DNA of 64,000 nt from Acidobacteriota bacterium (GTDB taxonomy: Bacteria; Actinomycetota; Acidimicrobiia; ATN3): positions 14,286 through 78,285 of the forward strand of contig QEUQ01000006.1 in assembly GCA_003577105.1 (NCBI GenBank), written 5' to 3'. Both the position numbers and the translations under genes were made by a program. The notes under the pieces are model-generated. The model was not told where the DNA came from and did no database searches. It was given only the letters and a program-made list of their open reading frames with translations. Position 1 is the first letter of the stretch. Every line of letters starts with the position of its first letter. Below are positions 302 to 29,470 of this stretch, piece after piece.

Positions 302-306
302 CAGGA

Positions 307-3959: not shown

Positions 3960-3962
3960 GCT

Positions 3963-7236: not shown

Positions 7237-7248
7237 CGGTCACCACCA

Positions 7249-7791: not shown

Positions 7792-7835
7792 CGAGTCCTG
7801 TCTCTTTCCCTTGCTGATCAGCGGTTATGGCGCCG

Positions 7836-8342
7836 CTACGCCGGTTTCACCTCCAACGCCGGACCTGTCCGGCGCCGAAGCAGTTCGTCGTTTCGAATCA
7901 TTTCGTGGAGTGTCAGAATCCCGTTGATGAGTGACTCCGGCCCCGGCGGGCAGCCGGGGACGTAGACATCTACGGGCACGATCGTGTCAACTCCTTGAAC
8001 TAGCGCATAGTTATTGAACATGCCGCCGCTCGATGCACACGCACCCATCGAGATCACCCATTTGGGCTCGGGCATCTGGTCATAGATCTGACGCAAGACC
8101 GGTGCCATCTTTTGGCTGACGCGCCCCGCGACGATCATCAGATCGGCCTGGCGCGGGCTGGCCCGAAAGACCTCCATGCCAAACCTGCTGAGGTCGTAGT
8201 GCGCAGCTCCCGTCGCCATCATCTCGATAGCGCAGCAGGCGAGGCCAAATGTCGCCGGCCAGACCGAATTCCTCCGGGCCCAATTGACGAGCTTCTCGAT
8301 CTGCACCGTGAGGAAAGTGGCAGGGATCTGGTCGAGTCCCAC
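7836..8342 (-). CDS. nuoB: NADH-quinone oxidoreductase subunit B
   Basis: [27 protein letters not shown]. Confidence 0.97.
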
Positions 8343-8777
8343 TCAGGCCGCCTTCTCTGCTTCGTGCGCGGCATCGGGCTCACTCGCACTGCGCGAGCCG
8401 ACGAGCAACGCGCGCCTAGGAGCCCAGTCGAGTACTCCCTCGCGCCAGATGTATGCATAAGCGCCAAGGAGAATCAATAAGAAGACTGCCATCTCGACGA
8501 ACCCAAAAACGCCTAGTCGGCCGTACGCGACCGCCCATGGGTACATGAAGACGATCTCGATATCGAAGAGTATGAAAAGCATGGCGACCATGTAGAACCG
8601 GACGGGAAAGCGCTCGGGTGGTTCCTTGTCCGCGACGATCCCGCACTCGTAGGGCTCGAGCTTGGTTCGGGTGGGTCGCCTCGGTGCAAGGAACTTGGAG
8701 ACGAACATTGAGACGCCACCGAAGAGTGCTCCGACGACGAGCATCATTAGAATTGGCAGGTAATCGGCGATCGTCAA
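8343..8777 (-). CDS. nuoA: NADH-quinone oxidoreductase subunit A
   Basis: EPYECG, FILFDIEIVFMYPWA; start moved from the ORF track (8846) to TTG at 8777, which has GGAG upstream. Confidence 0.94.
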   Translation of the reverse strand: MTIADYLPILMMLVVGALFGGVSMFVSKFLAPRRPTRTKLEPYECGIVADKEPPERFPVRFYMVAMLFILFDIEIVFMYPWAVAYGRLGVFGFVEMAVFLLILLGAYAYIWREGVLDWAPRRALLVGSRSASEPDAAHEAEKAA

Positions 8778-8919
8778 GGCGCAGCGATCTCCAGTCTCGG
8801 CGGGAGTTGAATTGGAAGCGTAGGGTCGCGTGCGACCCGCCCGCAAACCGATTGCTGTACCGAATTTTGCCAGCTACTACGCGGTCCAGCGGTCATTCCG
8901 AAATCTGGGCGCAGGTCGT

Positions 8920-10170
8920 CTACCGCTTGCCCGGGAGCAAGGTCCCGAGGCGCTCAATGACGTAGTAGGCCCGCGACGTGACCCGCTTGTCAGCTGGATC
9001 TCCGAGGTGGGCAAGAACCATTAGCACCCACTGCATGAACGGCTTAGAGCGCATCCCCACGCTTCCCAGAAAACCCATGATTCGCGGATTTCCTATCAGT
9101 GCAGCGAAGATTCGCCCGGCTTTGTAGTAGCCGCCGTACATCGAATATACGCGTTCGGAGTAGCGGGCGATCTCCAGCCCGTTGCCGGTTCGCAGAGCTC
9201 GGCTCATCAACTCTGCCGCCACCTCGGCGGTCTCCATGGCGTAAGCAATTCCCTCGCCGTTGAAGGGGCTGATCGCGCCAGCGGCATCGCCGATCAGTAC
9301 CCAGTTGCTCCCCGCACGAGGACGGACCGAGATCCCCATAGGGAGCTTGCCACCACGCTCCGGCCCAAGGCTGTCCTCGGCTTCGAAGTCCCACGACGGT
9401 CCCGCCTGCGCGACGAAGGCCTCCATGAGCTTGGACGTGTTGACATCTTTCCAATCCCGATACGTCGACAAGAGACCGGCGCCGACGTTGACTGTGCCGT
9501 CGGCCATGGGGAAGACCCAGCCGTAAGCGGGAAGCGAATCTTCACCGTGGTACAGATCGAGATGGCTCTCCATCCACTCATCGGTGTCTCGCGGGCTGCG
9601 GAAGTAGGCTCGAGCTGCAAGACCCATCGGGTACGAGCGGTCACGCCTCGCGCCCAATGCCCTGCCGAATCGGGAAAGCGATCCGTCAGCTACGACCACG
9701 AAGCGTGCCCGCACCTCAATCTCGCCGTCCGCGTCTTTGGCTACCGCCCCTTTCAGTAGTCCGTCTTCGTAGAGAGGGGAGACCGCCTCGGTAGCCTCCC
9801 GGATCTCGGCGCCGAGATCCCTGGCGTAGTTGGCGATGTCGAGGTCGAGGATTCTTCGAGGCACGGTCATGCCATAGCTCGGGTAGATCGAATGCTCCGG
9901 CCACTCGAGCTCGAGCGAATGCCCGAAGCCGCACGCCCGGAGCCCTCGGACTCGGTGATACCCATCGAGCTTTGATTCCATTCCAATGTCAAGCAGCGCC
10001 TTGACTGAACGCGGAGTCAGACCGTCGCCGCAGACCTTCTCGCGCGGGTATCGCTTCTTCTCGAGAAGGAGTACATCGTGGCCTTCGCGAGCGAGCCGGC
10101 CCGCCGCGGCGCATCCCCCCGGACCGCCGCCAACGACCAGTACGTCTGATTTCTCGGTTCGCTTCGACAT
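8920..10170 (-). CDS. Geranylgeranyl reductase family flavoprotein (MenJ-like menaquinone side-chain reductase candidate)
   Basis: GGGPGG FAD loop, PREKVCGDGL, YGWVFP, GDAAGAISPFNGEGI; lies immediately upstream of nuoA. Confidence 0.88.
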   Translation of the reverse strand: MSKRTEKSDVLVVGGGPGGCAAAGRLAREGHDVLLLEKKRYPREKVCGDGLTPRSVKALLDIGMESKLDGYHRVRGLRACGFGHSLELEWPEHSIYPSYGMTVPRRILDLDIANYARDLGAEIREATEAVSPLYEDGLLKGAVAKDADGEIEVRARFVVVADGSLSRFGRALGARRDRSYPMGLAARAYFRSPRDTDEWMESHLDLYHGEDSLPAYGWVFPMADGTVNVGAGLLSTYRDWKDVNTSKLMEAFVAQAGPSWDFEAEDSLGPERGGKLPMGISVRPRAGSNWVLIGDAAGAISPFNGEGIAYAMETAEVAAELMSRALRTGNGLEIARYSERVYSMYGGYYKAGRIFAALIGNPRIMGFLGSVGMRSKPFMQWVLMVLAHLGDPADKRVTSRAYYVIERLGTLLPGKR

Positions 10171-10228: not shown

Positions 10229-11062
10229 TCAGCCGCCCGCGAGCGTGCGCTCGTATGCGACGACTGCCTCTAGCTCGTCCGGTGAGAGGATGCTCCCAAA
10301 AGCCGGCATCGAACCGCGTGCCGGGTTCTTGTTGGCGCCCCACCCGTCGGGGAAGGCGGCGTTGCCTTTCTTGACAAACTCAACTTGAGAGGCCGCTTCG
10401 GGGAAGTCCTTTAGCAACGTCGTGTTGTTGGCCTTGGAAAGCGGAAGGCCGACACCGCCCTGTCCTGTAGCTCCGTGGCACGCCGCACATTGCTTCTCAA
10501 AGACCGCCTTGCCGTCAGGACCCTTCTTGGAGACATCGGCCCCCGGCTCAGGCAGCGCAGAACCGTCGCACGCGATCAGCTGACCGTCATCACCGACGTT
10601 GAGCTTGCCGGCCTGCCCGCACCTAACGCCGCTTGAGAACTGGCCGAGGTAGACCATGGCAATCACCGGGAGAACAACAAAGGCAAGCACTAGCCACTTC
10701 GGCGCTCCGCTGGTGACAACCTCCTTGATGCCACCCGCAATCTCGCTCTGATCAGCTTCCGGATATGGCACCTCGCCAACTCCGACGAGATCAATTGCCG
10801 GCGCTACAAGAGCCTTGGCCTCGGCGACAGTGACCTCCCGGGGGGGCGCCGGTGTTGACGCTGGAGGAGTCGCGGGTGAAGCCGGTGATGCCGGTGATGC
10901 CTGTGAAGCGACAGCTTCCTGAGCCGGCTCTTCGGCCGCGCCGCCACCTCCAGCTTCGGCCGTCGGGGTGTCAGCCGCTTCGCCGCCCTCGTCGTCGCCA
11001 CCCTCCGACTTGGAGCGTGCGGCCTGCGAGCGCTTCAGCAGATGCTCGGGGATCTCTACCAT
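10229..11062 (-). CDS. Membrane-anchored monoheme cytochrome c with long N-terminal low-complexity tether
   Basis: One TM helix (WLVLAFVVLPVIAMVYL), CAACH heme motif, GSMPAF axial Met; N-terminus MVEIPEHLLKRSQAAR followed by an acidic Ala/Pro linker. Confidence 0.9.
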   Translation of the reverse strand: MVEIPEHLLKRSQAARSKSEGGDDEGGEAADTPTAEAGGGGAAEEPAQEAVASQASPASPASPATPPASTPAPPREVTVAEAKALVAPAIDLVGVGEVPYPEADQSEIAGGIKEVVTSGAPKWLVLAFVVLPVIAMVYLGQFSSGVRCGQAGKLNVGDDGQLIACDGSALPEPGADVSKKGPDGKAVFEKQCAACHGATGQGGVGLPLSKANNTTLLKDFPEAASQVEFVKKGNAAFPDGWGANKNPARGSMPAFGSILSPDELEAVVAYERTLAGG

Positions 11063-11077
11063 GGCGAAGGGGCTCCT

Positions 11078-13009
11078 CTATTTCAGAGTGGACAGATAGC
11101 TGACGAGGTTCTGCATCTCTTCGTCTGAGAGATGTGAATACGAGGGCATCACCGACCAGTCGGCGGTCTCGTGCGGATCCTTCAGATGCGCTATGAGGGC
11201 ATCGGCATCTTTGGTTCCGTCGCGGCCGGCAAAGTGGGTTAGGTCAGGTCCGATACGACGGGTACCCATCATCTGGGGGTCGTCAAACGCGTAGTCGCCG
11301 GGAACGGAAACGGCACCGAGATATGCGTCGGCCTCGACGGGGCGGACTACCTGAGTATGGCAATTCCAACAACCCTCTCTCGCATAGATCAGACGCCCCT
11401 TGGCCTCGGGAGTATCGAGATTTGGAGCCGCTACCTGGCGTTCGTTGCCCAGCTTCGTCGGAGTCGTGAAGCTCTCGTTGGCGACTGGCAATGAGACCGC
11501 AAGCCACAGCCCCAAGCCGAAAATGACCGCTGATGCAACAAGTACCGCGGGTGCACTCTCTCTCTTCTCGCCCTCGCCGGCATCATCAAATGGCACAAGC
11601 CGCTCGCGTGCACCAAGCTCGCCCCCCATGACGGTTCGCACCAGGTTTGTGAGGAAGACCAGCGCTGCCACGGCGACAATTGCGATTCCAACCACGCGCA
11701 TAGTGGAGAACCACCTGAGCGGTTCGGCGACTCCTTGCCAAGCTGACCCAGTGACGACGGGTTTGGCATTGGTCGCGCCCGCCTGCCAAATGAATCCTGT
11801 TACGGCGCCACCGACCCAGGCCCCGGCCGCCAAAGTGACAACGCCTACGACCGTCAGGCCCAAATGCCAGTTGGCCAAGCTCGTCGAGACCCACTGACGG
11901 CCCGTCACCCTCGGGATCACCTCGTAAACGGATCCAGCAGCCCAGCACGAGAGGCCACCAATCAAGAGCAGTTCCGTATTGCCGAGTAGGAAGTCGGTCA
12001 GTCCGACGATCTGCTGGCTACTGCGGAGCGCGCCGAGAGGCATCATCAGCGAGTAGAGAAAGAGGAGTCCCCCGCCGGCCACGAAGAACCTGACAGGGAC
12101 CGAGCGCCCGACAGTTCCCCAGCGCCCCTTGAGGCTTCTGCTCAAGTTTGAGAGAACGGTCCACACCGGAATCGCACTCACGATCGAGAAGGCTATGGCG
12201 ATCGACTGGAGGCTCTCCTGCCCTGGACCAAAGATGCCGCGAATCTGCCCTGTGAATACCCAGAAGATCACTAGCGACCAAAAACCCACCATGGCAATCC
12301 GGCGAGAATAGAGCGGGGCACCGGCGATCTTTGGAATGAAGTAGTAGACAGCGCCAATCCCCGCTGCGAGCAGCCAGAGGCCTGCGACGTTCTGCGCATA
12401 GAAATTGGCCTGCGTTGACTGCCCAACACCCGCGTAAATCGGGAGGTTCGCCGCGACAATCATTATCGGAAGGGCTATGACAGCGAGACCGAAGTACCAG
12501 AGCGACGGATAGATTTGCGGTTCGGCCCGCTTAAGGATTGTGCCCACGACGGCCGCGGCAGTAACCAGGGACGAAATCACCAAGACTGCCGCAATGTAAA
12601 TGGGGAACTCGAGAAACTGCTGCCCTCCCCCAAAGCCAGCTCCTATCGCGCATATACCCGCTAGCGTGCCAAGGAACCAAAGCAGCGCGTTTCCCTTCAA
12701 TGCGGCCTCAGCAACGAGTGACGTACCGCAAAGCCTAGGAACGACGTAAATCGCTGCGGCGGTCAAAGCCATCGAAAGCCAGCCATAGAGGATCGCATCG
12801 AGGAACATCGATTGCGCTCGCCCATACGCGAGGAATGACAGCCCACCTAGCAAGTCCGGATAGATCAGCTGTGCGGCAGCTAGAAATCCGATGACAGCCC
12901 CGACTGCCAGCCAGATCCCCGAGAGGACCAAATACAGCTTGGCCGCCGAATCACCGCGGCTGCCGCTGTCGGAGTTTGAGGACTCACTCACTTCGGGTTC
13001 TTCAGTCAA
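11078..13009 (-). CDS. cbb3-type oxidase CcoN-like/CcoO fusion with degenerate (His-less) CcoN domain
   Basis: CcoN-like segments (YGRAQSMF, IYPSLWYF, YYFIPK...PLYS, TDFLLGN, YEVIPR) and intact CcoO (GRLIYAREGCWNCHTQVVRP, GTRRIGPDL, HLKDP, SVMPSY); start TTG at 13009 with GAGGG (ORF track extends to 13075). Confidence 0.88.
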   Translation of the reverse strand: MTEEPEVSESSNSDSGSRGDSAAKLYLVLSGIWLAVGAVIGFLAAAQLIYPDLLGGLSFLAYGRAQSMFLDAILYGWLSMALTAAAIYVVPRLCGTSLVAEAALKGNALLWFLGTLAGICAIGAGFGGGQQFLEFPIYIAAVLVISSLVTAAAVVGTILKRAEPQIYPSLWYFGLAVIALPIMIVAANLPIYAGVGQSTQANFYAQNVAGLWLLAAGIGAVYYFIPKIAGAPLYSRRIAMVGFWSLVIFWVFTGQIRGIFGPGQESLQSIAIAFSIVSAIPVWTVLSNLSRSLKGRWGTVGRSVPVRFFVAGGGLLFLYSLMMPLGALRSSQQIVGLTDFLLGNTELLLIGGLSCWAAGSVYEVIPRVTGRQWVSTSLANWHLGLTVVGVVTLAAGAWVGGAVTGFIWQAGATNAKPVVTGSAWQGVAEPLRWFSTMRVVGIAIVAVAALVFLTNLVRTVMGGELGARERLVPFDDAGEGEKRESAPAVLVASAVIFGLGLWLAVSLPVANESFTTPTKLGNERQVAAPNLDTPEAKGRLIYAREGCWNCHTQVVRPVEADAYLGAVSVPGDYAFDDPQMMGTRRIGPDLTHFAGRDGTKDADALIAHLKDPHETADWSVMPSYSHLSDEEMQNLVSYLSTLK

Positions 13010-13113
13010 TGCTCGCCCCTCAATTTCTGGAACGCGACATGAAATCGCTGCGGCGTCGGAGCTCCAAAGGCCCACGAAACGCTCCTGCTGCCGCGCCGGG
13101 CACTTGGCGCGGG

Positions 13114-13143
13114 ATTGTCCTCGTCCGGTGGCGGAAGTGTCAA
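13114..13143 (-). promoter_or_regulatory. Candidate housekeeping-sigma promoter for the ccoNO-like gene
   Basis: Minus strand TTGACA-N18-GACAAT in the gap between resC and the ccoNO-like gene. Confidence 0.55.
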
Positions 13144-13159
13144 GAACACCGAACCCTCC

Positions 13160-14017
13160 CTAGGTGCCTGCGTACGAGTGCAAGCCGGCAATCCAAAGGT
13201 TGACGGCGTAGAAATTCACAAGGATCGCCACCCCTCCGACTATCGCCAGTATTGCCGCGCCCCGCCCGCGCCAGCCTTGCGTCGCTCGAGCATGTAAGTA
13301 CGCGGCAAATATCATCAGAACGATGAAGGACATCGTCTCTTTGGGATCCCAGCCCCAGTAGCGGCCCCAGGCTTGCTCGCCCCAAATCGCTCCAGCGATG
13401 ACTCCCAGCGTCCAGATCGGGAATGCAAACATGATCATTCGGTACGAGGCCTGATCCAGGCGATCCGCGCTCGGCAAGCGCGAGACAAGCCCCCCATCAC
13501 TGGTGTCCTCGTCTGCAAAATCTGGATGCCTCGCCTCCCACCGACGCCGAACCAAGTACATGACCTCCAAGATCGCACCAAACAAGAGAAGTGATGCCCC
13601 GGCCATGACGAGAAAGACATGAAATGTCAGCCAGTTACTTCGAAGCGCCGGTTGGAGTTCGCCAGGATCGGCGTAAATGACCCAGCCGACCGACATAAGA
13701 ATCGCCGCGGCGGCAGCCACATATCCCCCGAGCGCCGTGAGGCCGAACTTGGCCTGACCTACGAACAAGTAGGCGGTGATCAACACGAAGGCCAGCGATG
13801 CCGTGAACTCATACATGTTCCCCCACGGTGCGTGCTCCGCCGCAAGGGTTCGGGTTATCAGAGAGAGGAGGTGAAGCGCCCATCCCAGCGAGAGAACGGC
13901 TGTGGCAAAGACCTTCCACTTACGCGTGCGCCAGGCGACGAAGCCGAAGTACCCCCCAGCCGCGACGAAGTAGAGGACGAGCGCCGACACGAAAGCTGCG
14001 TTTGATGTGCGATTCAA
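13160..14017 (-). CDS. resC: System II cytochrome c synthase ResC/CcsA
   Basis: WWD motif WGEQAWGRYWGWDPKET, HAPWGNMYE, conserved His (LTFHV, AYLH, GLHSY); TTG start overlaps the resB stop. Confidence 0.94.
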   Translation of the reverse strand: MNRTSNAAFVSALVLYFVAAGGYFGFVAWRTRKWKVFATAVLSLGWALHLLSLITRTLAAEHAPWGNMYEFTASLAFVLITAYLFVGQAKFGLTALGGYVAAAAAILMSVGWVIYADPGELQPALRSNWLTFHVFLVMAGASLLLFGAILEVMYLVRRRWEARHPDFADEDTSDGGLVSRLPSADRLDQASYRMIMFAFPIWTLGVIAGAIWGEQAWGRYWGWDPKETMSFIVLMIFAAYLHARATQGWRGRGAAILAIVGGVAILVNFYAVNLWIAGLHSYAGT

Positions 14018-15642
14018 CGAGTTGCCTTCTTTGCGACTGAGCCGGCCCCTCGAAGTGCGTCTGTGAGATCCGTTTCGATGCGCAAGAACTCCTCCTCGAA
14101 TATGTCCTTGCGCTGATATGCGACCCCGCCGAAGCGTAGCACCACCCCTTCGGTCCCACCCTCGACAACTTCGAACCAAAGTCGGCGCCGGTATGCGTAA
14201 AGCGCCGGATACAGACTGAGCATCATCACTGCGGCGGCGGCGGCGGCAACCGGAGTCCCGTAAGAGTCGCGCTTCACCGAGAAGACCGTGAAGCGCCTGA
14301 GGTCTATGAGTTCAACGTTGAGGCCGCCTCCAAGCTGAGTTGAGGTGCCCAGCTTCTCGTTGGCATTCGCAGGGAAGGTGGCGAACTTCTGTGCGACCTG
14401 TTCCAGGCCCGTCTTGTCGAGTTCATAGACGTTTTGCGGTTTGTCTAGTCCGAGGTCTCCCCGATACTCAGTCACGACGACGAGCGGGCGCTCGCCAAAG
14501 TCTCCAGTACTGATGAGGTCAAGAGCACCGGGCTCCCTAGCTCGGGGATCATCGGGATTGGTGGCGCGAAAGGGAACCAGCTTGAAATCGGGAAAGAGTG
14601 AGAGCTCCAGACCCACCGAGCCTGAGGCGGTGGAGGGCAACTTGATGACGCCGGCACTCGAGCCATTGGGGCCGCGCATTCCCAAGACCAATGGGCCGTC
14701 GTAAACGACGGTGCTTCCGTCGGTAACACGCACGACTGGGGCCCAGCCGTATCCGAGTTGGTAAAGCTTGACTCCCTTATAGGAGACGGGCTTGTTCACC
14801 CGCACTTCGTCCTCGAGGACCTCCCTGCCGTCGTCGAGGATCTTCACGCGTGAGGTGTAGCTCTTGGGCATGCCGTCGTCGCCGTAGGCGACATCGAAAT
14901 CCTCTACGGCGACGGTGAATCCAGCGTGAGGGTTGATCCATCGGGCGAAGGCACCCTCGCTGTACTCGTCGAAATTGACCCGGCCTCCCTCTACCCAGCT
15001 TGTCTTCTCGACTACCACCGCGCTTCCCTCGAATTTTGTGGTGATCGTCAGAGCTGCGGCCAGTGCCACCAAGAAGAATGACCAGTGAAACAGGACACTC
15101 CCTGTCTCGCGTGAGTGACCTCGCTCGGCGATCCACTGGTTCGCCCCATTGACTGGTGATGACCGCCAGCGTCTGCGGCCGAGAACCCGCCGCGCCTCTG
15201 TCACCGTTTCATCTGAACTCAGCTCCGATTCAACCTCGGTCGTGAAGCGGAGATCTGGGAGGCGGCCTCGCTCCGGTGCTTGCTTGATGCGACGCGCGTG
15301 GGAGAGAGCGGCCCGGGTCCTAGGTATCAGACATGCGCCGGTCACAAATAAAAGAAAGCCGGCCAGGGCGAGAAACCACCAGGAGGTGAAGACCTGAAAC
15401 AGGCCGAGGCGATCGAAAACCTCTCCCCAGAAGCGATGCTCCTCGATGAACTGGGCCACTTTCGAGGGCGCGGCGCTTCGCTGAGGAATCACACTGCCCA
15501 GAAGCGAGACGATCGCTACGGCGATGAGAAGCTGAATGGCAGTCCGCATCGAACGCAGGCGACGCCAGCCGTGCATGCGCTCCATAGCCCTAGGCGGCAC
15601 CGGCTCTGCTCCGAAGTCCTCACTCTCGTTCGATTCAGTCAA
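14014..15642 (-). CDS. resB: System II cytochrome c biogenesis protein ResB/Ccs1
   Basis: LRSMRTAIQLL...GSVIPQ, FTSWWF, GSVLFH, VRVNKP...YQ; large extracytoplasmic domain; between resA and resC. Confidence 0.92.
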   Translation of the reverse strand: MTESNESEDFGAEPVPPRAMERMHGWRRLRSMRTAIQLLIAVAIVSLLGSVIPQRSAAPSKVAQFIEEHRFWGEVFDRLGLFQVFTSWWFLALAGFLLFVTGACLIPRTRAALSHARRIKQAPERGRLPDLRFTTEVESELSSDETVTEARRVLGRRRWRSSPVNGANQWIAERGHSRETGSVLFHWSFFLVALAAALTITTKFEGSAVVVEKTSWVEGGRVNFDEYSEGAFARWINPHAGFTVAVEDFDVAYGDDGMPKSYTSRVKILDDGREVLEDEVRVNKPVSYKGVKLYQLGYGWAPVVRVTDGSTVVYDGPLVLGMRGPNGSSAGVIKLPSTASGSVGLELSLFPDFKLVPFRATNPDDPRAREPGALDLISTGDFGERPLVVVTEYRGDLGLDKPQNVYELDKTGLEQVAQKFATFPANANEKLGTSTQLGGGLNVELIDLRRFTVFSVKRDSYGTPVAAAAAAVMMLSLYPALYAYRRRLWFEVVEGGTEGVVLRFGGVAYQRKDIFEEEFLRIETDLTDALRGAGSVAKKATR

Positions 15643-16168
15643 TCGATCCCCCCGCCCGGGCGTACTCGATCATGCAGCTGAGGTCTGTCTTCTCGATCGG
15701 ACCCGGTATTGAGGCAACGACCCTCCCGTCGCGTGCGACAACAAAGGTTGACGGAGGGGCAGTCACCTTCCAAGTCGCGGCGAGTGCGGCCTCCCGGTCA
15801 TATATCGACGGAAAGGGAACGTCGAACTCGCGCTCAAAGGCTGCTGCCGCTGCCCTGTCATCGCGAATGTTCACCCCGATAAATTGGACTCCCTGAGATG
15901 ACAGCTCCCGGGCCGCTGCTGCGAGCATCGGGGTCTCCGTCCGGCAGGGGCCACACCACGACGCCCAAAAGTTCACCACGGTGACCTGTCCGGCAGTGCT
16001 CACAAGTGATACGGGGGTCTCGCCGGTCACGGGAGGCCCTTCGGTATTGGGAGCGGGACTGTCCCGAGAGATCACCCGACCGCTGCAAATCGCTGCCTCC
16101 CCGGAAGTGCAAGCCGGCAGAAGCATGATCAGCGCGACAAGTCCAAGAGAGAGCCGGCGCCGCGTCAT
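15635..16168 (-). CDS. resA: ResA/TlpA thiol-disulfide oxidoreductase (lipoprotein)
   Basis: VNFWASWCGPCRTE; LPAC lipobox. Confidence 0.9.
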   Translation of the reverse strand: MTRRRLSLGLVALIMLLPACTSGEAAICSGRVISRDSPAPNTEGPPVTGETPVSLVSTAGQVTVVNFWASWCGPCRTETPMLAAAARELSSQGVQFIGVNIRDDRAAAAAFEREFDVPFPSIYDREAALAATWKVTAPPSTFVVARDGRVVASIPGPIEKTDLSCMIEYARAGGSID

Positions 16169-16270
16169 CGCTCACACAAGGGGATCAACGGCGCTGGCCC
16201 TCGGTAGGCGCTGCGAGTCCGCGCTGATGATTCGGCTGAGTTTGCCGGGTACTTTCGGGCCGTGACTAGA

Positions 16271-16288
16271 ATGTGCATCGATTCACAA
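16271..16288. promoter_or_regulatory. Rex operator candidate at the resA / cytochrome bc divergent promoter
   Basis: ATGTGCA-TCGA-TTCACAA vs Rex consensus TTGTGAA-N4-TTCACAA (2 mismatches); overlaps a TAGAAT -10 hexamer (16267-16272). Confidence 0.7.
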
Positions 16289-16350
16289 GGTTACCGGAAG
16301 CGGCACATCCATCTTTCCGGATGCCGCAATTCATACGGAGGTATCAACAC

Positions 16351-16662
16351 GTGGGCTCGGGCAATAGGTCGTGGGTCGCTAGCGTCTATCTCGCTGCCCT
16401 CGCATTCGCCTTGTTGATCCTCGTCTATGGGGTCATACCGAGCGAGTTCATCGGCTGGTTCAACAAGAAGTACAACGACGCGAACCTCCGAAAGTTCGTA
16501 CGTGATCCGATCGTCGTCGTGTGGCACCTGGTGACAATCGCGGGTTTCGTCGTCTACGCCGTGCAGTACCAGAACTTCCGCGCGAAGCGAGCCAAGAAGG
16601 CCGCTGAGGCTGAGTCCGAGAGCGAATCGGCCTACGGCAGACCGCTGAAGTCGGAGGCCTGA
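16351..16662 (+). CDS. Small 2-TM hypothetical membrane protein, first gene of the cytochrome bc operon
   Basis: Two hydrophobic segments; GTG at 16351 preceded by GGAGG (ORF track starts at 16273, inside the operator). Confidence 0.75.
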   Translation: MGSGNRSWVASVYLAALAFALLILVYGVIPSEFIGWFNKKYNDANLRKFVRDPIVVVWHLVTIAGFVVYAVQYQNFRAKRAKKAAEAESESESAYGRPLKSEA

Positions 16663-16670
16663 GTAAGACC

Positions 16671-17078
16671 ATGGCCCGCGGAATCGTCACCGGATTGCCG
16701 GATACATTCACGGACTACGAGGTCGAGCTGATCGATCCCGGAACCCTGGAGAAGTCCGTACGCCCCAAGCAGTTCCTCCACATTGACCAGGAGGAATGCA
16801 TTATGTGTGAAGGGTGTGTGGACATTTGCCCGTGGCGGTGCATCCACATGCTCTCGACCGATTCGGTTCTGGACGCCGAAGGAATTGAGCGGCCCGGGGA
16901 GGATCCCGAGGACCACGTCGTCTTTGTTGTCGACGAAGACGAATGCACACGATGTCAACTTTGCGTGGACCGCTGCCCAACGGGCGTAATCATGCTCGGC
17001 AAGGTCGGCTTGGCGGTGCGCGGCGATACACATTCCAGAGACCAGAGGCACGGGTACGCATATGGCGTCAGGTTCTGA
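16671..17078 (+). CDS. 2[4Fe-4S] dicluster ferredoxin
   Basis: CIMCEGCVDICP and CTRCQLCVDRCP. Confidence 0.92.
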   Translation: MARGIVTGLPDTFTDYEVELIDPGTLEKSVRPKQFLHIDQEECIMCEGCVDICPWRCIHMLSTDSVLDAEGIERPGEDPEDHVVFVVDEDECTRCQLCVDRCPTGVIMLGKVGLAVRGDTHSRDQRHGYAYGVRF

Positions 17079-17121
17079 CGCGATGGCGGCTCGTACAGGA
17101 AGACACCGGAGGTAGTTCCAA

Positions 17122-17904
17122 GTGGCCAACGGAAACGGCGGCCTCGGCAGCAAGCTGTCCGATAAGGGAAAGCAGCTGACCGAGAAGGTCCAGTCGAGCC
17201 AGGCATGGACCTCCATTTTCCGCCCTGGTTCGATCTTCTCAAAGGGCTACTCCGACAGCCCTCGAAATCGCTCGTACGTGATCATGAACTCCCTCGTCTA
17301 TCACCTCCATCCGGTGAAGGTGAAGCGTCACGGGGTGAAGGTCAGCTACACGCTCTGCTTGGGTGGCCTTTCGTTTTTTCTGTTCATAGTCCTCACGATC
17401 ACGGGCATCTTCCTGATGTTCGTTTATCGGCCTACCGAAGCTCAGGCCTATCCGGACATGCAGGCCATGATGACCTCGGTTGCGTTCGGGACCCTCGTGC
17501 GAAATATGCACCGCTGGGGAGCGCACCTCATGGTGATCTCGGTCTTCTTGCACATGGCCCGCGTCTTTTACCACGGTGCGTACAAGTCGCCGCGTGAGTT
17601 CAACTGGGTCATTGGAGTCCAGCTCCTCATGCTCACACTCCTGCTCTCCTTCACGGGATACCTGCTTCCGTGGGATCAGCTGAGCCTCTGGGCCGTCACG
17701 GTGGGTACCAACATGATGGGCTACACACCCGTCTTCGGCCGCGAGATGCGTTTCGTTCTTCTCGGGAGTACGGAGATTTCCACCAACACCCTGCTTCGCT
17801 GGTATGTACTCCACGTGATCATGCTCCCATTCGTAGCCGTCATCTTCATGGCCATCCATTTCTGGAGAGTGCGCAAAGACGGCGGCATTTCCGGTCCGCT
17901 CTAG
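17122..17904 (+). CDS. Cytochrome b, short b6-type subunit of a Rieske/cyt b complex
   Basis: TLCLGG, RNMHRWGAHLMVISVFLHM, FTGYLLPWDQ, WYVLHV...AIHFWRVRKDGGISGPL. Confidence 0.93.
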   Translation: MANGNGGLGSKLSDKGKQLTEKVQSSQAWTSIFRPGSIFSKGYSDSPRNRSYVIMNSLVYHLHPVKVKRHGVKVSYTLCLGGLSFFLFIVLTITGIFLMFVYRPTEAQAYPDMQAMMTSVAFGTLVRNMHRWGAHLMVISVFLHMARVFYHGAYKSPREFNWVIGVQLLMLTLLLSFTGYLLPWDQLSLWAVTVGTNMMGYTPVFGREMRFVLLGSTEISTNTLLRWYVLHVIMLPFVAVIFMAIHFWRVRKDGGISGPL

Positions 17905-17922
17905 GCTGAGGTTCGAACGCCA

Positions 17923-18609
17923 ATGGTTGAAATACCAGAACACCTGCTGAAGCGCTCGCAAGCAGCGCGAAACAAGGCCGAATCGGACGGCGACGAAGCT
18001 CCAGCTGAAGATGCGGCGCCAGAAGCCGCGGAGCCGGCCAAGGTCGCCACAGCCACAGAGGCCGCGCCGCCGAAGCCGAAGAAGTCCGGAAACGGCGGCG
18101 GAGCCGCAACCAAGCTCCACACCCACCGATTGCTCACGGTAGTCAAGTCGGGCTCTATTCAGCCGCCCAAACCCGCACCGGTGGACAAGGTCAACGTCTG
18201 GCCGCACCTACTGGTGATTGAGTTTCTTGCGCTCTTGGCCTGCATGGTGTTCCTGGTGCTCTTCAGCATCTTCGTAAACGCGCCCTTGCTCGAAGAGGCC
18301 AACTACAACAAGACGCCGAACCCGTCGAAAGCGCCCTGGTACTTCCTTGGCCTCCAAGAACTGCTGGCCTACTTCGATCCGATGATTGCGGGGGTGACGA
18401 TTCCAGGCATGGGTCTGATCGGTCTCGCGCTTGCGCCGTATATCGACAAGAACCCGAGCAATCACCCCGAAGACCGCAAGTTCGCGATAGCGCTCTTCAC
18501 CTTTTTCATGATGTTTTGGACGGTCCTGGTGATCATCGGGTCGTTCTTCAGAGGTCCGGGCTACAACTTCGCGTGGCCCTGGGCCGATGGGATCTACTTC
18601 GACTTATGA
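17923..18609 (+). CDS. Cytochrome b subunit IV (PetD/QcrC-like C-terminal part)
   Basis: VWPHLL, TPNPSKAPWYFLGLQELL (Qo motif variant), PYID; N-terminal tether identical in its first 16 aa to the protein at 10229-11062. Confidence 0.9.
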   Translation: MVEIPEHLLKRSQAARNKAESDGDEAPAEDAAPEAAEPAKVATATEAAPPKPKKSGNGGGAATKLHTHRLLTVVKSGSIQPPKPAPVDKVNVWPHLLVIEFLALLACMVFLVLFSIFVNAPLLEEANYNKTPNPSKAPWYFLGLQELLAYFDPMIAGVTIPGMGLIGLALAPYIDKNPSNHPEDRKFAIALFTFFMMFWTVLVIIGSFFRGPGYNFAWPWADGIYFDL

Positions 18610-18619
18610 GGTCAGACGC

Positions 18620-19438
18620 GTGACAACTCGCCAACTCCTCCTTATAGCAATACCCACAGGGCTCGCCTTGCTTGTTCTGTTTGGAATAGTCGTTGCCGCT
18701 TCGCGGCGAGAGTCTGACCTCGAGCTCGGGCGGGACGAGGCCGAACGCGAAGCAGCTCTGGCTGCAGTACCAGGCGGTTCCTCCTCGGGTAGCCGGACTC
18801 GCAAGAAGACCGCCCCTGGCAACGTCGAGATGGAGAAGGTCACGCCCAAGTTCGATCCCGAACTCGAAGGGATGACCAGGCGCCAGGTCCTGAACCGGGG
18901 GATCGTTCTCGCTGCGCTCACGGGCCTTGCGGCGTTCGGCGGTGCGTGCCTCGCCTTCCTTTGGCCCAAGCTCTCGGGGGGATTTGGCTCGGTGATATCG
19001 GCCGGCAATATCAATGAGATAAAGGCACAGATCAAGAACGACAAGGCGCCCTTCTACAACCCCAGCGGGCGCTTCTATCTGATGACCTATGAAACCGAGC
19101 TCGACAATGCCGAAGGGGAAGTGCTCTACCCGACAGTCTTCACGCAGTTCAAAGAGACGGGCCTAATTGCGATGTACCAGAAGTGCCCGCACCTCGGATG
19201 CAGAGTGCCGTGGTGCAGCACTTCGCAGTGGTTTGAGTGCCCTTGCCACGGATCGAAATACAACTCCGCTGGTGAATGGACAGGCGGACCGGCACCACGC
19301 GGCATGTGGCATTTCCCGATCAAGCTGAACGGCGAGCAAGTCTCGGTGGACACCGGAACTCAAGTTGAAGGCCCGCCGAAGGGCACCTCGACTCCGGTTA
19401 ATGCCGAAGCCAAAGGCCCGCACTGCGTCGGGATTTAG
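18620..19438 (+). CDS. Rieske 2Fe-2S subunit
   Basis: KCPHLGC and ECPCHGSKY; internal Tat motif MTRRQVL + TM; extra N-terminal TM; GTG start with GAGGT upstream. Confidence 0.93.
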   Translation: MTTRQLLLIAIPTGLALLVLFGIVVAASRRESDLELGRDEAEREAALAAVPGGSSSGSRTRKKTAPGNVEMEKVTPKFDPELEGMTRRQVLNRGIVLAALTGLAAFGGACLAFLWPKLSGGFGSVISAGNINEIKAQIKNDKAPFYNPSGRFYLMTYETELDNAEGEVLYPTVFTQFKETGLIAMYQKCPHLGCRVPWCSTSQWFECPCHGSKYNSAGEWTGGPAPRGMWHFPIKLNGEQVSVDTGTQVEGPPKGTSTPVNAEAKGPHCVGI

Positions 19439-19482
19439 AAGTAGCTGTAGGACTGAAAAATGTACGGAGACCGGACTAGCAA

Positions 19483-20445
19483 ATGAACTCAAGCTTGACC
19501 CTGATCCTCGTGGCCGGCGTCGTGCTCTTTCTCGGCGCTGGATTCCTGTTCTTCTCTGGAACAGGGCCGCGCAAACCGAAGAAGGTAATACCGGCAAATC
19601 AGAAGCGTTACCACGACGACGAAACCCTCGAGGGGCCTGTGCTCACCAAGATCCTCGGGTGGTCGCTCATCTTCACTTTCATGCTTGCAGCGGCGCTACC
19701 GCTCTATTGGCTGACGGAACCACAGCGCCAGGTCAGCTTTGCCGAGAAGTACAACCACAATGCGGCCGAACGCGGCAAGAAGTTCTTTGCGGACGCAAAG
19801 GAAGATCCGGAGGGATTCGGGTGCGCCACGTGCCACGGAGGCGTCAAGGGCGGAACGACCCGATACGTGCTGCTTTCGGGGCCGGAAGAAGGCCGTGAAG
19901 TCACGTGGACCGCGCCCGCGCTCGATGACATCTTCTATCGCTTCAGCCGCGATCAAGTGCATGACATCCTTGTATATGGGCGTCCAAACACACCGATGCC
20001 TGCCTGGGGATTGCGAGGCGGCGGCCCGATGACCGAGCAAATGCTCAACGACGTCATTTCCTATCTTGAATCGATTCAGACCGATCCTGAGACAGCCAAG
20101 CAGAATGCCGGCGGAGGACAGGGTCTCTCGGGTCAGAAGCTCTTCGAGAAGAATTGCGCGCGGTGCCATACGCAAGGGTGGAGCTACAGGTATCCGGACG
20201 TGACCTGGAACAAGCCGGTCGTCATGGGGCCGGCGGGTGGAGGTTCTTTTGGGCCGAACTTGCGGGGATCCGTAACCCGCCAGTTCTACGACCCCGCCGA
20301 TCAAGTCAAATTCGTCTCTGACGGAAGCCAGTTCGGCAAGGCATACGGGCAGAACGGAGTCGGAACTGGGCGCATGCCGGGCATGGGGAAGATCCTCGAT
20401 GAAAAGGACATCATGGCAATCGTCGAATATGAGCGGAGTCTGTAG
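19483..20445 (+). CDS. Membrane-anchored diheme cytochrome c
   Basis: CATCH and CARCH, PMPAW and RMPG Met ligands, two N-terminal TM segments. Confidence 0.92.
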   Translation: MNSSLTLILVAGVVLFLGAGFLFFSGTGPRKPKKVIPANQKRYHDDETLEGPVLTKILGWSLIFTFMLAAALPLYWLTEPQRQVSFAEKYNHNAAERGKKFFADAKEDPEGFGCATCHGGVKGGTTRYVLLSGPEEGREVTWTAPALDDIFYRFSRDQVHDILVYGRPNTPMPAWGLRGGGPMTEQMLNDVISYLESIQTDPETAKQNAGGGQGLSGQKLFEKNCARCHTQGWSYRYPDVTWNKPVVMGPAGGGSFGPNLRGSVTRQFYDPADQVKFVSDGSQFGKAYGQNGVGTGRMPGMGKILDEKDIMAIVEYERSL

Positions 20446-20976
20446 ATGTATCTGATAGCTTCAGCCGCAGCCTCAAAGCTCTCACCCACAGCGCTCTTCA
20501 TGCGCGGGGTGATCGTAGTCATCGCTGCTTTCGTGATCTTCGTCGGTTCGGTCTGGCTTGTCCTCATGACTGACGTCGGGGCCAAGAAGGCCATCATGCT
20601 CGTCTTGACGGTGCTTTTCGCATTTATCTCGATGCTCTCGTTGCTCTGGTTCAGATATCCACAGCAAGCGCCAACACCCCATGGAACAGTCTGCCTTGGC
20701 GGCAAGGTCAATCCGGCCTTCGAGGAGAATGGTGGTGCAGCCGGGGAATCGTCTGTCAGCGTCAAGAAGAATGTCGGTGGATCCGAAGTCGATGAGAAGA
20801 TCAGTGCCTGCGAATCTGGCGTCTTCTTTACGAAGTACTTCTACCCAACCATCTTCCTTGTGACCAGTATCGTCCTCTCGCTGATTTCGGCGACTGGGCT
20901 GAATCGGATTGAGAAGGCCGAGAAGCTCGCCGATGAACTCGAGGCCGCTGGCGAGCTAGAGGCCGCCACCGCCTAA
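20446..20976 (+). CDS. 3-TM hypothetical membrane protein, last gene of the bc operon
   Basis: Starts directly after the cytochrome c stop; three hydrophobic segments; Cys pair in the loop. Confidence 0.75.
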   Translation: MYLIASAAASKLSPTALFMRGVIVVIAAFVIFVGSVWLVLMTDVGAKKAIMLVLTVLFAFISMLSLLWFRYPQQAPTPHGTVCLGGKVNPAFEENGGAAGESSVSVKKNVGGSEVDEKISACESGVFFTKYFYPTIFLVTSIVLSLISATGLNRIEKAEKLADELEAAGELEAATA

Positions 20977-22278
20977 CTAGGTTGTCGAAGCAGCTGCCGC
21001 TGCGATGTCGCAGGTTCGCTCGATTTCGTCGCGACCATGGGCGAGGCTGACGAAGATCGCCTCAAAAGGCGAGGGCGCCAGTAGCACGCCCCGAGAAAGC
21101 ATTTCGCCGAAGAAGCGTGAATACATTGCTGAATCCGCCCTCTTGGCATCCTCGTAGTTCCTGACCGGCTCATTCAGGAAGAAGATCCCTGCTAGCGTAC
21201 CTTCCTGCTGGACTGTGAACTCCAAGCCGGTGCCCTCAAGCGCATTTGCCAGGCCTGCCGCAAGGAGTTCGACCCTTCCCTCAAGCATCTGGTAAGTCTC
21301 GGCGCTCAAATCTCCCAGTACGGCGAGGCTCGCCGCCGTTGCGACCGGATTACCCGAAAGGGTCCCTGCCTGATAGACATCACCAGATGGGGCAAGGCAC
21401 TCCATGATTTCGGCTCGACCACCGAAAGCTGCGAGGGGAAGTCCGCCTCCGATCACCTTTCCAAGCGTCGTCAAATCCGGAGCGACCGAGTAATACGCCT
21501 GGGCGCCACCCAGCGCCATGCGGAAGCCGGTAATCACTTCGTCGAAGATCAACAGAGCCTCGTGGGCGTTAGTGACGGCGCGAAGACGAGACAAGAAGCC
21601 TGGCTCTGGTGGCACCAGGCCCATGTTGGCCGCAACCGGCTCAACGATCACGGCAGCGATCTCGCTGCCGTGACGAACGAAAATCTCATCTACGGCATCG
21701 ATGTCGTTGTACGGCAGCACCACGGTCGAGGAGACGGCGCCCGCTGGCACGCCTGCGGATCCTGATATTCCGAGCGTCGCCACGCCGCTTCCCGCAGCAG
21801 CAAGAAGTGCGTCTGAATGCCCGTGATAGCAGCCATCGAACTTCACAATCAGATCTCGCCCGGTAAACCCTCTGGCCAACCTCACTGCGCTCATCGTTGC
21901 CTCGGTACCCGAACTCACGAGGCGCACTTCATCAAGAGAGGGGACAGCGTCGCAAAGCAGCTCCGCGAGTCGGACTTCGGCCTCGGTCAGCAATCCGAAC
22001 GAAGTCCCACGAGTCGCAGCTGCCGCGATCGCTTCGGCTACGGGCGGGTGGGCATGGCCAAAGATACTCGCCCCCCACGACTGTATGTAGTCGATGTATC
22101 GCCGACCATCGCTATCCCACAGGTACGCTCCCTCGGCGCGTTCAGCGACGATTGGCTCGCGACCGACCGATGCAAATGCCCTGACGGGTGAATTGACTCC
22201 CCCGGGGATTACCTGTGATGCGCGCTTGAAGATGCTGTTGCCCAGCCGGTCCTCGTCATGAGAGGGCACGTGCTGCAT
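20977..22278 (-). CDS. hemL: Glutamate-1-semialdehyde 2,1-aminomutase
   Basis: IPGGVNSPVRAF, SSGTEATMSA, GCYHGH, DEVITGFR, GKVIGGGLP, YQAGTLSGNP. Confidence 0.97.
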   Translation of the reverse strand: MQHVPSHDEDRLGNSIFKRASQVIPGGVNSPVRAFASVGREPIVAERAEGAYLWDSDGRRYIDYIQSWGASIFGHAHPPVAEAIAAAATRGTSFGLLTEAEVRLAELLCDAVPSLDEVRLVSSGTEATMSAVRLARGFTGRDLIVKFDGCYHGHSDALLAAAGSGVATLGISGSAGVPAGAVSSTVVLPYNDIDAVDEIFVRHGSEIAAVIVEPVAANMGLVPPEPGFLSRLRAVTNAHEALLIFDEVITGFRMALGGAQAYYSVAPDLTTLGKVIGGGLPLAAFGGRAEIMECLAPSGDVYQAGTLSGNPVATAASLAVLGDLSAETYQMLEGRVELLAAGLANALEGTGLEFTVQQEGTLAGIFFLNEPVRNYEDAKRADSAMYSRFFGEMLSRGVLLAPSPFEAIFVSLAHGRDEIERTCDIAAAAASTT

Positions 22279-23233
22279 CCTTGGCGAAATAGGTAATGAT
22301 CAAGTTCGCGCCAGCGCGCCTGATCGCGGTGAGACTCTCGATCATCACGGGCTCGGCATCGAGATAGCCTGCTTCAGTGGCGGCCTTCAGAGCCGAATAC
22401 TCCCCCGAGACCTGATATGCCGCCACTGGCAGAGTGGTAACCGCCTTTATGTCAGAGATGATGTCAAGGTAGTGACCGGCCGGCTTCACCATGAGAATGT
22501 CGGCACCCTCATCCTCATCGAGGAGTGCCTCTCTCACGGCCTCGCCTCGGTTTCGATAATCCATTTGATATGAGCGGCGATCGCCGAAAGCCGGGGCGCA
22601 CTCGGCGGCATCACGAAATGGTCCGTAGAAGGCGGAGGCAAACTTCACCGAGTAGGCCATGATTGGGGTCATCTTGAAGCCTGCCGAATCCAAGGCGCCA
22701 CGAATCGCCCCGACCTGCCCGTCCATCATGCCGCTTGGTGCAATCAGTCCTGAGCCTGCCGTGGCTTGAGATATAGCGATCTCCGCGTAGCGCTCCAAGG
22801 TGGCGTCATTGTCTACTGCGCCCGATTCGCCAAGTACCCCGCAATGTCCGTGATCTGTGAACTCGTCTAGGCACAAGTCCGTTGATATGAGCAGTTCTGA
22901 TCCGAATGCATCGGCAAGCTCCATTACGGCTCTCTGAACTATCCCGTCCCGATCTGAAGCCTCGCTTCCCTCCGGATCCTTCGTTTTGGGAATTCCAAAG
23001 AGGATCACGGCCCGAACTCCAGCAGAGAGGAGCTCCTCGGCTTCCTTTCGAAGGCTCCTGATGCTGTGCTTGGAAACGCCTGGCATCGTGGGAATGGGCT
23101 CGGGATCGGTGAGGGACTCCTTGACGAAAAGAGGCGCCACCAATTGGTCAGGGCTCAGCGCTGTCTCCGCCACCAAGTTGCGCGCAAGTGCAGTTGATCG
23201 GAGCCTCTGAGGGCGTGAATGTGGGAAGTTCAT
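22256..23233 (-). CDS. hemB: Porphobilinogen synthase
   Basis: DLCLDEFTDHGHCG, APSGMMDG, FYGPFRDA, MVKP, AYQVSGEY; true start MNFPHSRP at 23233 (the longer ORF overlaps the upstream gene). Confidence 0.96.
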   Translation of the reverse strand: MNFPHSRPQRLRSTALARNLVAETALSPDQLVAPLFVKESLTDPEPIPTMPGVSKHSIRSLRKEAEELLSAGVRAVILFGIPKTKDPEGSEASDRDGIVQRAVMELADAFGSELLISTDLCLDEFTDHGHCGVLGESGAVDNDATLERYAEIAISQATAGSGLIAPSGMMDGQVGAIRGALDSAGFKMTPIMAYSVKFASAFYGPFRDAAECAPAFGDRRSYQMDYRNRGEAVREALLDEDEGADILMVKPAGHYLDIISDIKAVTTLPVAAYQVSGEYSALKAATEAGYLDAEPVMIESLTAIRRAGANLIITYFAKDAARALS

Positions 23234-23252
23234 GGGGCAATCGTACCGATCA

Positions 23253-29270: not shown

Positions 29271-29380
29271 TGACGAGCAACTCCAGTAGATGTCGGGGAT
29301 CCGCACTACGGAACGATCAGACCTCGACGAGATCCGGCCCATGTGGGAGCACACAATGCACAAGTCCATATGATATGAGC

Positions 29381-29398
29381 TTGTGACTGAATTCTCAA
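29381..29398. promoter_or_regulatory. Rex operator candidate upstream of rex (autoregulation)
   Basis: TTGTGAC-TGAA-TTCTCAA vs TTGTGAA-N4-TTCACAA (2 mismatches). Confidence 0.7.
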
Positions 29399-29470
29399 AG
29401 TCACAATCACTTAATGCAACTCGTATTTTGAGCGTCATGACCGCTGGAAAGCGTGGAGGGAGACTCCCAG

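Follow-up and report, generated by a model that had tools for sequence, protein, structure and literature searches.

The window analysed here, a 64-kb stretch (positions 14286–78285 of contig C65) of an Acidimicrobiia metagenome-assembled genome (MAG; 2.87 Mb, 104 contigs, completeness 95%, contamination 0.42%), carries two divergent respiratory gene sets: a plus-strand operon for a complex III of the cytochrome b6 type, and a minus-strand arm with a CcoN-CcoO fusion and a tethered cytochrome c. The CcoN-like protein (hereafter pseudo-CcoN) is a conserved relative of cbb3 oxidase subunit I that has kept the cbb3 fold and lost heme b, heme b3 and CuB; that it is not an oxidase we regard as nearly certain. 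The explanation we prefer, with slightly better than even confidence, is that this dead remnant of a cbb3 oxidase is a scaffold whose carriers, c-heme or copper, sit between complex III and the terminal oxidase. A listing of open reading frames (ORFs) and Pfam searches located every gene that a first-pass annotation, made from the letters alone, had named, in the order it gave for both arms (Table 1).

Ligand columns were read from an alignment to P. stutzeri CcoN (3mk7_A), in which we take H60, H207, H257, H258, H345 and H347 to serve heme b, heme b3 and CuB, and for which we likewise assume the position of the cross-linked Tyr. The window protein has F, Q, I, R, N and E in these six columns, where canonical control proteins read HHHHHH, and W in the Tyr column, so the first-pass description of a His-less CcoN-CcoO holds. 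All six positions are likewise substituted in 9/9 relatives. In a 20-member family alignment (pairwise identity 25–33%) W266, T360, G427 and G443 are the sole invariant residues and no His is conserved; the motifs SYGRL, YYxLPRLTG, GFWSL and FGPxPDW persist. Replacements in the ligand columns vary across the family (A, G, S, Q and others) and, because they are not conserved, leave no alternative ligand set.

The AlphaFold2 (AF2) model of the fusion shows a confident 12-helix fold, with predicted local distance difference test values >90 over most helices, a result with which the protein’s ESM Atlas model agrees. Against the PDB (Foldseek), the AF2 model matched 3mk7 chains with a template-modelling (TM) score, normalized to the target, of 0.90–0.91 and a root-mean-square deviation of 2.3–2.7 over ~460 columns, and the CcoN of 8smr and 6xkw with TM 0.89–0.90. 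The non-catalytic heme-copper oxidase fold proposed at first pass is therefore what we find: the ligands are absent and the fold is kept at TM 0.89–0.91. Profile scores exceed the Pfam cut-offs for COX1 (139 bits; cut-off 34.8) and FixO (85; 29.6) and fall under those for NCBIfam ccoN TIGR00780 (165.1; 583.15), NCBIfam ccoO (79.3; 200.65) and the fused I/II model PRK14485 (258.8; 1080). The CcoO part begins with a linker helix at about residues 508–532 of the AF2 model and continues as a monoheme c domain with CWNCH; the CxxCH is retained in 8/8 aligned fused members, the window protein included.

A profile search of 1.84 billion representatives returned 3613 matches at E ≤ 1e-3, 638 of them at E ≤ 1e-30; the best 150 were examined. 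In ranks 1–49 no row has His in more than one of the six ligand columns; over the best 150, 92 have no ligand His, 29 are partial and 29 have all six, the first of these at rank 50. Long fusion forms with CxxCH make up 40 of the 150. In a FastTree analysis of 137 rows plus controls, with ligand columns removed and partial rows excluded, ligand-less and canonical states are separated by only two changes, a count from a crude method on an unrooted tree. Feature-based neighbours of the pseudo-CcoN domain in the Atlas are COX1-only clusters whose commonest phylum is Verrucomicrobiota, so ligand-less CcoN relatives may exist outside Actinomycetota. Ligand-less members appear in NCBI and JGI records as ‘cbb3-type cytochrome c oxidase subunit I’.

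Within the class, 140/401 sampled genomes (the window genome and the unpublished G253 included) have a pseudo-CcoN match in an open frame. A search of genome contigs with the whole pseudo-CcoNO as query gave 176 pattern matches, of which none was confirmed. It is present in families f3 (46/48 genomes), f7 (45/65), f10 (8/12), f12 (21/25) and f15 (9/9) and absent from f8 (0/38), f9 (0/22), f11 (0/21), f16 (0/17) and f20 (0/18). Other classes have it too: a sample of the phylum gave matches in 32/401 genomes, including the unpublished G477. Loci of families f68 and f112 there are ligand-less; in f66, locus L127 is ligand-less and L125 keeps His at 2/6 columns. Two genomes of f60 and f82 have the canonical HHHHHH, and neither has a match to b6-type cytochrome b or to the ferredoxin gene described below. 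As side observations, the two His of L125 (G464:C54) occupy the low-spin heme b columns, not those of CuB or heme b3, and may mark an intermediate or an alignment artefact; and a locus from another Actinomycetota class (L130; G432:C38:3722-5557 on) has a canonical HHHHHH CcoN with CxxCH in a frame open for at least 1135 residues from the start of the match, which suggests a very long CcoN-CcoO-(more) fusion in a genome that lacks a b6-type cytochrome b.

Gene linkage ties pseudo-CcoN to complex III. We surveyed gene neighbourhoods, a check that the first-pass annotation had suggested, in 19 loci chosen by pseudo-CcoN (sets of 9 and 10, from at least 10 families), and found pseudo-CcoN, CcoO (fused or the next gene) and the tethered cytochrome c divergent from a ferredoxin-b6 operon in 9/9 and 9/10, that is, in 18/19 loci. 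In L133 (G531), from another class, the whole divergon is repeated, resABC included. The complementary sample consisted of 80 loci fetched by cytochrome b6 similarity alone (Microthrix, Aquihabitans, Iamia and Ilumatobacter type; 53 include the full 10 kb upstream). None of these 80 has pseudo-CcoN (best tblastn E 0.49), and the side opposite the operon keeps the tethered cytochrome c only; pseudo-CcoN is therefore an accessory module of part of the class. Pseudo-CcoN is always paired with a carrier: in most loci a CcoO with CxxCH is fused to it or encoded by the next gene, and in one lineage a cupredoxin is fused to it and CcoO is separate. The earlier idea that the oxidase fold holds c-type hemes fits this pairing.

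The plus arm is the organism’s complex III, a menaquinol:cytochrome c oxidoreductase of the b6 type. Its cytochrome b is split after helix D into two genes, for b6 and subunit IV (SUIV). The b6 half is far closer to the b6 of chloroplasts and cyanobacteria than to actinobacterial QcrB; its best PDB match is spinach cytochrome b6 (E 1.3e-47; QcrB about 1e-21), and all four heme His align with the bL and bH ligands of the spinach protein. The Cys of TLCLGG (17356–17358) aligns with that of spinach YCLGG at the heme ci site and is retained in 83/84 related loci; cytochrome b6 has, by sequence, the Cys (CxGG) expected to hold heme ci covalently. The Qo motif of SUIV is APWY (18331–18342), not PEWY, which places the protein in the published APWY clade; A137, P138, W139 and Y140 are invariant in a 44-sequence alignment. 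The Rieske protein has the b6f iron-sulfur subunit as its best NCBIfam match, and the diheme cytochrome c has no PDB relative by sequence. NCBIfam models of the actinobacterial complex score far under their cut-offs (QcrB 110.9 against 500, QcrA 20.5 against 275, QcrC 28.4 against 200).

This b6 is the only cytochrome b that a search of the genome found. The same search, which the first-pass annotation had called for with respect to oxidases and qcrCAB, gave one genuine COX1, of aa3 type on contig C77, and no match to cytochrome bd or to NrfD/ACIII-type proteins in this 95% complete MAG. The order ferredoxin-b6-SUIV-Rieske-diheme c is preserved in nearly all of the 80 b6-chosen loci, and across Acidimicrobiia the usual layout is a b6-type operon that includes a ferredoxin gene. 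The ‘different architecture’ announced at first pass stands in that the complex is not QcrCAB; it is no special extra architecture, because it supplies the only cytochrome b in the genome and is standard in the class. A second Rieske-domain ORF (114 aa; G000:C86:61277-61531) lies away from any cytochrome b. The operon’s two small membrane proteins are less familiar: memA has no Pfam or NCBIfam family and weak homologues at the same position in some loci, and memB is a membrane protein of no known family whose N-terminal ~60 residues are ~30% identical to proteins encoded at the same position in many loci.

Cytochrome b6 is directly preceded by the ferredoxin gene in 79/80 b6-chosen and 18/19 pseudo-CcoN-chosen loci, and in 3/3 genomes of other Actinomycetota classes that have such a b6. 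The ferredoxin is strongly constrained (mean column identity 68% over 44 aligned sequences), with invariant residues in the N-terminal extension and in the C-terminal tail HGYxYG(M/V)R. In public records, the 2049 clusters of its family bear names that are either generic or mistaken: ferredoxin, 4Fe-4S binding protein, NuoI and PreA. On synteny and constraint, we give about an even chance to a functional partnership between the ferredoxin and the b6-type complex. A complex prediction with cytochrome b6, SUIV and ferredoxin, using a 44-row alignment for each, scored 0.16 and 0.10 against a mark of 0.32, a result that counts neither for nor against contact.

The products of the two arms have sequence features in common. 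The tethered cytochrome c consists of an N-terminal motif, a low-complexity linker of ~100 residues, one transmembrane helix and a c domain; it sits at the CcoP position of a ccoNOP-like operon, and its best NCBIfam and PDB matches are CcoP, both weak (E 9.6e-10, and E 4e-5 for 6xkw_p). The c domains of the two arms share 32% identity over 114 residues (E 5e-11) and are paralogous, as noticed at first pass. The identical N-terminal peptide that was said to link the arms is also there: MVEIPEHLLKRSQAAR occurs in SUIV (17923–17970) and in the tethered cytochrome c with 16/16 residues identical and 18/20 matching. The two DNA copies differ at 10 third-codon (synonymous) positions in 16 codons, which argues for selection on the peptide and not for a recent copy. 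A whole-genome tblastn search with the peptide found these two copies only (E 1.7e-16 and 2.1e-14) and no third; weak matches (E 0.038 to 1.7) fell in short or implausible frames, the best, at 0.038, in non-genes.

Across related loci, the motif M-x-E-[IV]-P-E-H-L-[LR]-[KR]-R-[AS], often tandemly repeated, starts SUIV in 83/84 N-termini. A copy lies upstream on the opposite strand in 61/80 b6-chosen loci, and the motif heads 23/23 of the divergent cytochrome c genes that tblastn recognized there. Pseudo-CcoN-bearing families carry in both proteins a longer variant, P..L[LV].RSA.A[RK]A.A.G.....[VI]L....G; the strict motif expression matched 6/18 in these families, and by eye 9/12 others have P..[LM]V.RSA.ARA. 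For the N-terminal module, neither a Pfam family nor a usable Atlas match was found. Both peptide copies are probably cytoplasmic by topology, because the SUIV N-terminus is on the n-side in b6f and the tethered c domain must be outside. The ferredoxin is acidic, the peptide basic and amphipathic, which makes the ferredoxin a candidate partner of the peptide.

The ‘acceptor encoded elsewhere’ that the first-pass annotation had postulated can be named. The genome’s only true oxidase is an aa3 type encoded by CoxII-CoxI-CoxIII genes (G000:C77:62348-66055; L129:6349-10056). At its C-terminal end, the 352-residue CoxII has an extra cupredoxin (PF13473) where most relatives have a cytochrome c domain. 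A NosZ-type nitrous oxide reductase with nos_propeller and CuA-like domains on contig C30 (L106:61-1713) is a second possible acceptor for c-type or copper carriers. G001, the sister and the only other genome of the window’s order, has genes for CoxII-cytochrome c, CoxI (544 bits), CoxIII, CoxIV and CtaG between pseudo-CcoN and CcoO. There, pseudo-CcoN has in place of CcoO a C-terminal cupredoxin with H...C..H..M, which we take to be a blue-copper ligand pattern. This domain is homologous to the cupredoxin of the window genome’s CoxII (38% identity, E 2e-20; the same H...C..H..M), so the same carrier domain sits on CoxII in one genome and on pseudo-CcoN in its sister.

From these observations we infer a direction of electron flow and a set of physical contacts, which by sequence may amount to the supercomplex proposed at first pass. 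Menaquinol would be oxidized by the b6-type complex; electrons would leave through the Rieske protein and the diheme cytochrome c, cross the CcoO heme held on dead CcoN and the CcoP-like tethered cytochrome c, and arrive at the aa3 oxidase with its cupredoxin-bearing CoxII, and perhaps at NosZ. Dead CcoN would be a membrane platform, as suggested by analogy with the solved bc1-cbb3 supercomplexes, holding a periplasmic one-electron carrier (CcoO heme c here, the cupredoxin in the sister genome) and probably sitting against both complexes. The ferredoxin and the two small membrane proteins would be co-transcribed with the complex III genes. With a single cytochrome b, a single true COX1 and, in a MAG 95% complete, no match to bd or NrfD/ACIII, the genome needs such a wire.

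Several results weigh against the scaffold explanation. Complex III and the oxidase work without pseudo-CcoN in much of the class (0/80 loci); the caa3 insertion of the sister genome was seen in 1/19 loci only; L116 (G302) has a pseudo-CcoNO and tethered cytochrome c far from any b6 gene; and neighbourhood and shared promoters can reflect respiratory co-regulation without binding. A simple version, in which CcoO on pseudo-CcoN replaces the missing c domain of CoxII, was rejected: 42/46 pseudo-CcoN-bearing genomes among G001–G120 have a CoxII match that runs through a fused c domain.

One alternative we consider unlikely: the module would be an independent electron-transfer unit serving other periplasmic enzymes (NosZ or a nitrite reductase, for example) or another process, and would share only regulation with the b6 operon. 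The genome’s NosZ does need a c-type or copper donor, the L116 module stands by itself, and the spacer between ResC and pseudo-CcoNO (13114–13143) contains a sigma-70-like hexamer pair, TTGACA-18-GACAAT, that could give the module its own promoter, although such matches are not above chance (2 found against 3.1 expected in a promoter scan, not above shuffles). Adjacency to the b6 operon in 18/19 loci over deep divergence speaks the other way, as do the caa3 genes embedded in the sister genome’s module and the cupredoxin that it has in common with CoxII. Distinctly improbable in our view is a non-redox role, in which pseudo-CcoN would be a membrane organizer or a platform for assembling or inserting c-type cytochromes or copper centres, even though no conserved polar or ligand residues are left in the membrane domain and resABC are neighbours both in the window and in another class. 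In the window and in 4/5 f68 loci (L120, L121, L123 and L133) pseudo-CcoN directly follows ResB-ResC, and L122 and L124 have ResC only; in most pseudo-CcoN loci, however, resABC are not adjacent, and the partner that stays the same is a redox carrier domain, which many members carry as a fusion.

That all catalytic residues are gone, and that the gene has been lost in many families of the class, might mark an evolutionary relic with little or no function. Intact frames at 25–33% identity, the kept fold, the conserved motifs and repeated fusions to working carrier domains make this very improbable. We give next to no credence to a reductase that still binds metals through unconventional ligands: a few members keep one or two His (L125, at two heme b columns; 29/150 are partial), but the window protein and most of the family have no possible ligand in the six columns, and the residues there vary freely. 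A reading that goes well beyond the scaffold explanation seems improbable as a whole. It joins the parts into an undescribed respiratory machine of Acidimicrobiia and related Actinomycetota, in which the b6 complex with heme ci would bind the ferredoxin (for ferredoxin-to-quinone or bifurcating electron transfer), the peptide would dock SUIV and the tethered cytochrome c to a common partner, and the pseudo-enzyme, carrying heme c or copper, would glue the complex to the aa3 or caa3 oxidase. If true, it would hard-wire ferredoxin to quinone, a type of route that has long been looked for in b6f for cyclic electron flow.

Among known systems, the bc1-cbb3 supercomplexes of P. aeruginosa (8smr) and R. 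capsulatus (6xkw) are alike in setting a Rieske/cytochrome b complex beside a CcoN-CcoO-CcoP unit with a tethered c wire; the operon order is N-O-P-like, and the pseudo-CcoN model superposes on their CcoN chains. In the portion of PMC10556555 cited here, CcoN touches cytochrome c1, a loop of c1 packs between CcoO and CcoP, and an N-terminal tail keeps a cytochrome c in place. The window’s CcoN differs in that heme b, heme b3 and CuB are all missing, which leaves the unit unable to reduce O2; its partner is of b6 type with a diheme c, the acceptor must be a separate aa3 or caa3 oxidase, and the operons are divergently linked. The QcrCAB-aa3 (bcc-aa3) system shares the phylum, a diheme cytochrome c subunit and independence of soluble cytochrome c, whereas the window’s cytochrome b is split and b6-like, its gene order is another and the Qcr models score far under their cut-offs. 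With b6f and the Firmicute and heliobacterial b6c complexes the window shares the four-helix b6 plus SUIV, the heme ci Cys and a b6f-like Rieske protein; it departs from them in APWY (not PEWY or PDWY), a diheme c (not cytochrome f), a long cytoplasmic SUIV N-terminal tail and an operon-encoded ferredoxin.

A split b6-like cytochrome b with APWY was already known in the Acidimicrobiia group. Kao & Hunte 2014 (PMC4122944), in the portion on which we draw, report split cytochrome b with APWY or PEWY in Rubrobacteridae and one Acidimicrobidae strain (Ilumatobacter), define an ‘APWY clade’ with no characterized member and suggest reverse operation for its complexes. The window complex shares the clade’s split cytochrome b, APWY Qo motif and CxGG Cys. 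It differs in being the only cytochrome b of an aerobe, and the same portion of that paper mentions no ferredoxin gene, ligand-less CcoN or shared N-terminal motif. Anammox R/b complexes and the ‘PDWF-FeS’ cytochrome b fusions of PMC4122944 likewise couple an Fe-S protein genetically to the n-side of cytochrome b; their Fe-S module is fused to cytochrome b or lies in an NAD(P)-linked subunit, whereas the window has a free 135-residue 2x[4Fe-4S] protein. Within the openly readable literature (subscription papers and supplements lie outside this scope), we found no description of a ligand-less CcoN or of its pairing with a b6-type complex, and the part of a survey covering the superfamily of heme-copper oxidases (PMC11214002) that we cite names no ligand-less family.

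The first-pass annotation placed a Rex-like operator in the middle of the divergon. A palindrome does lie there (Table 1), and TGTG-N8-CACA, mostly TGTGCAnnnnTTCACA, recurs upstream of the operon in 16/90 related loci, where by our arithmetic ~1 is expected by chance. Counted in the window by itself, the pattern is no more frequent than chance would give (2 matches, 0.52 expected; 12/100 shuffles reach 2). Compared with what we take to be the Rex consensus, TTGTGAA-N4-TTCACAA, ATGTGCATCGATTCACAA has two mismatches; it also fits the pattern TGTGA-N6-TCACA that we assume for catabolite-repressor-protein (CRP)-type sites, so the palindrome is a candidate for a Rex-like or a CRP-like operator. A Rex-type gene 8 kb away, beyond the hem genes, encodes a candidate reader of the palindrome; rex and hem genes are linked in Streptomyces.

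Plus-arm genes are separated by 0 to 44 bases or overlap. A search for RNA sequencing runs that cover 10229–20228 listed none. After the operon come hemL, convergent to it, and hemB (region 20977–29438). On the other side, a geranylgeranyl-reductase-family gene lies between the tethered cytochrome c and nuoA, in the same place in many loci; it may, we presume, encode a menaquinone side-chain saturase of the MenJ type.

Table 1. Features of the two arms and their neighbours (window positions; FAD, flavin adenine dinucleotide)
Feature	Position	Strand	Evidence or remark
nuoA to nuoI	2-8846	minus	
FAD-dependent geranylgeranyl-reductase-like flavoprotein gene	8920-10170	minus	
Tethered monoheme cytochrome c, 277 aa, CAACH	10229-11062	minus	Pfam Cytochrom_C, Cytochrome_CBB3
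N-terminal peptide MVEIPEHLLKRSQAAR of tethered cytochrome c	11015-11062	minus	
Pseudo-CcoN-CcoO fusion, 665 aa	11078-13075	minus	Pfam COX1 139 bits, FixO 85 bits
CcoO-type cytochrome c domain, residues 557-665, CWNCH	11081-11407	minus	FixO match 557-655
Pseudo-CcoN membrane domain, residues 45-485	11621-12943	minus	
resA-resB-resC, System II cytochrome c maturation	13160-16168	minus	
ResC	13160-14179	minus	Pfam Cytochrom_C_asm; true start probably later
ResB	14014-15642	minus	Pfam ResB
ResA	15635-16168	minus	Pfam Redoxin
Palindrome TGTGCATCGATTCACA between arms	16272-16287	no strand	Rex-like or CRP-like operator candidate
memA, small membrane protein	16351-16662 (longest ORF from 16273)	plus	Probable start GTG 16351 after GGAGG
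2x[4Fe-4S] ferredoxin, 135 aa	16671-17078	plus	Pfam Fer4 families
Cytochrome b6, four-helix N-terminal half of cytochrome b	17122-17904	plus	Pfam Cytochrome_B
SUIV, C-terminal part of cytochrome b	17923-18609	plus	Pfam Cytochrom_B_C
Rieske [2Fe-2S] protein, CPHLGC ... CPCHGS	18587-19438	plus	Pfam Rieske
Membrane-anchored diheme cytochrome c, CATCH + CARCH	19483-20445	plus	Pfam, two Cytochrom_C stretches
memB, membrane protein, last operon gene	20446-20976	plus	ORF listing
Rex-type redox repressor gene	28599-29438	minus	PF06971 + CoA_binding

Because their ligands are absent, the ligand-less proteins give no high-affinity O2 respiration. Where abundant Acidimicrobiia of marine, freshwater and soil habitats, among them the 1-Mb genomes of family f7, have been credited with microaerobic capacity, that inference may therefore be wrong. 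The cited portion of PMC8357290 is an example of a MAG paper that takes cbb3 oxidases, which may or may not belong to the ligand-less family, at face value for such genomes. The APWY-type complex is here the only complex III of an aerobe, with a dedicated ferredoxin. Its operon also occurs in MAGs labelled Ilumatobacteraceae, Iamiaceae and Candidatus Microthrix, and the same operon without pseudo-CcoN is found in cultured relatives such as Aquihabitans, which makes the question testable. If the scaffold explanation is true, a subunit of a heme-copper oxidase has persisted as a cofactor-free scaffold over hundreds of millions of years; respiratory pseudo-enzymes would gain a clear example, and the building of supercomplexes a handle for its study.

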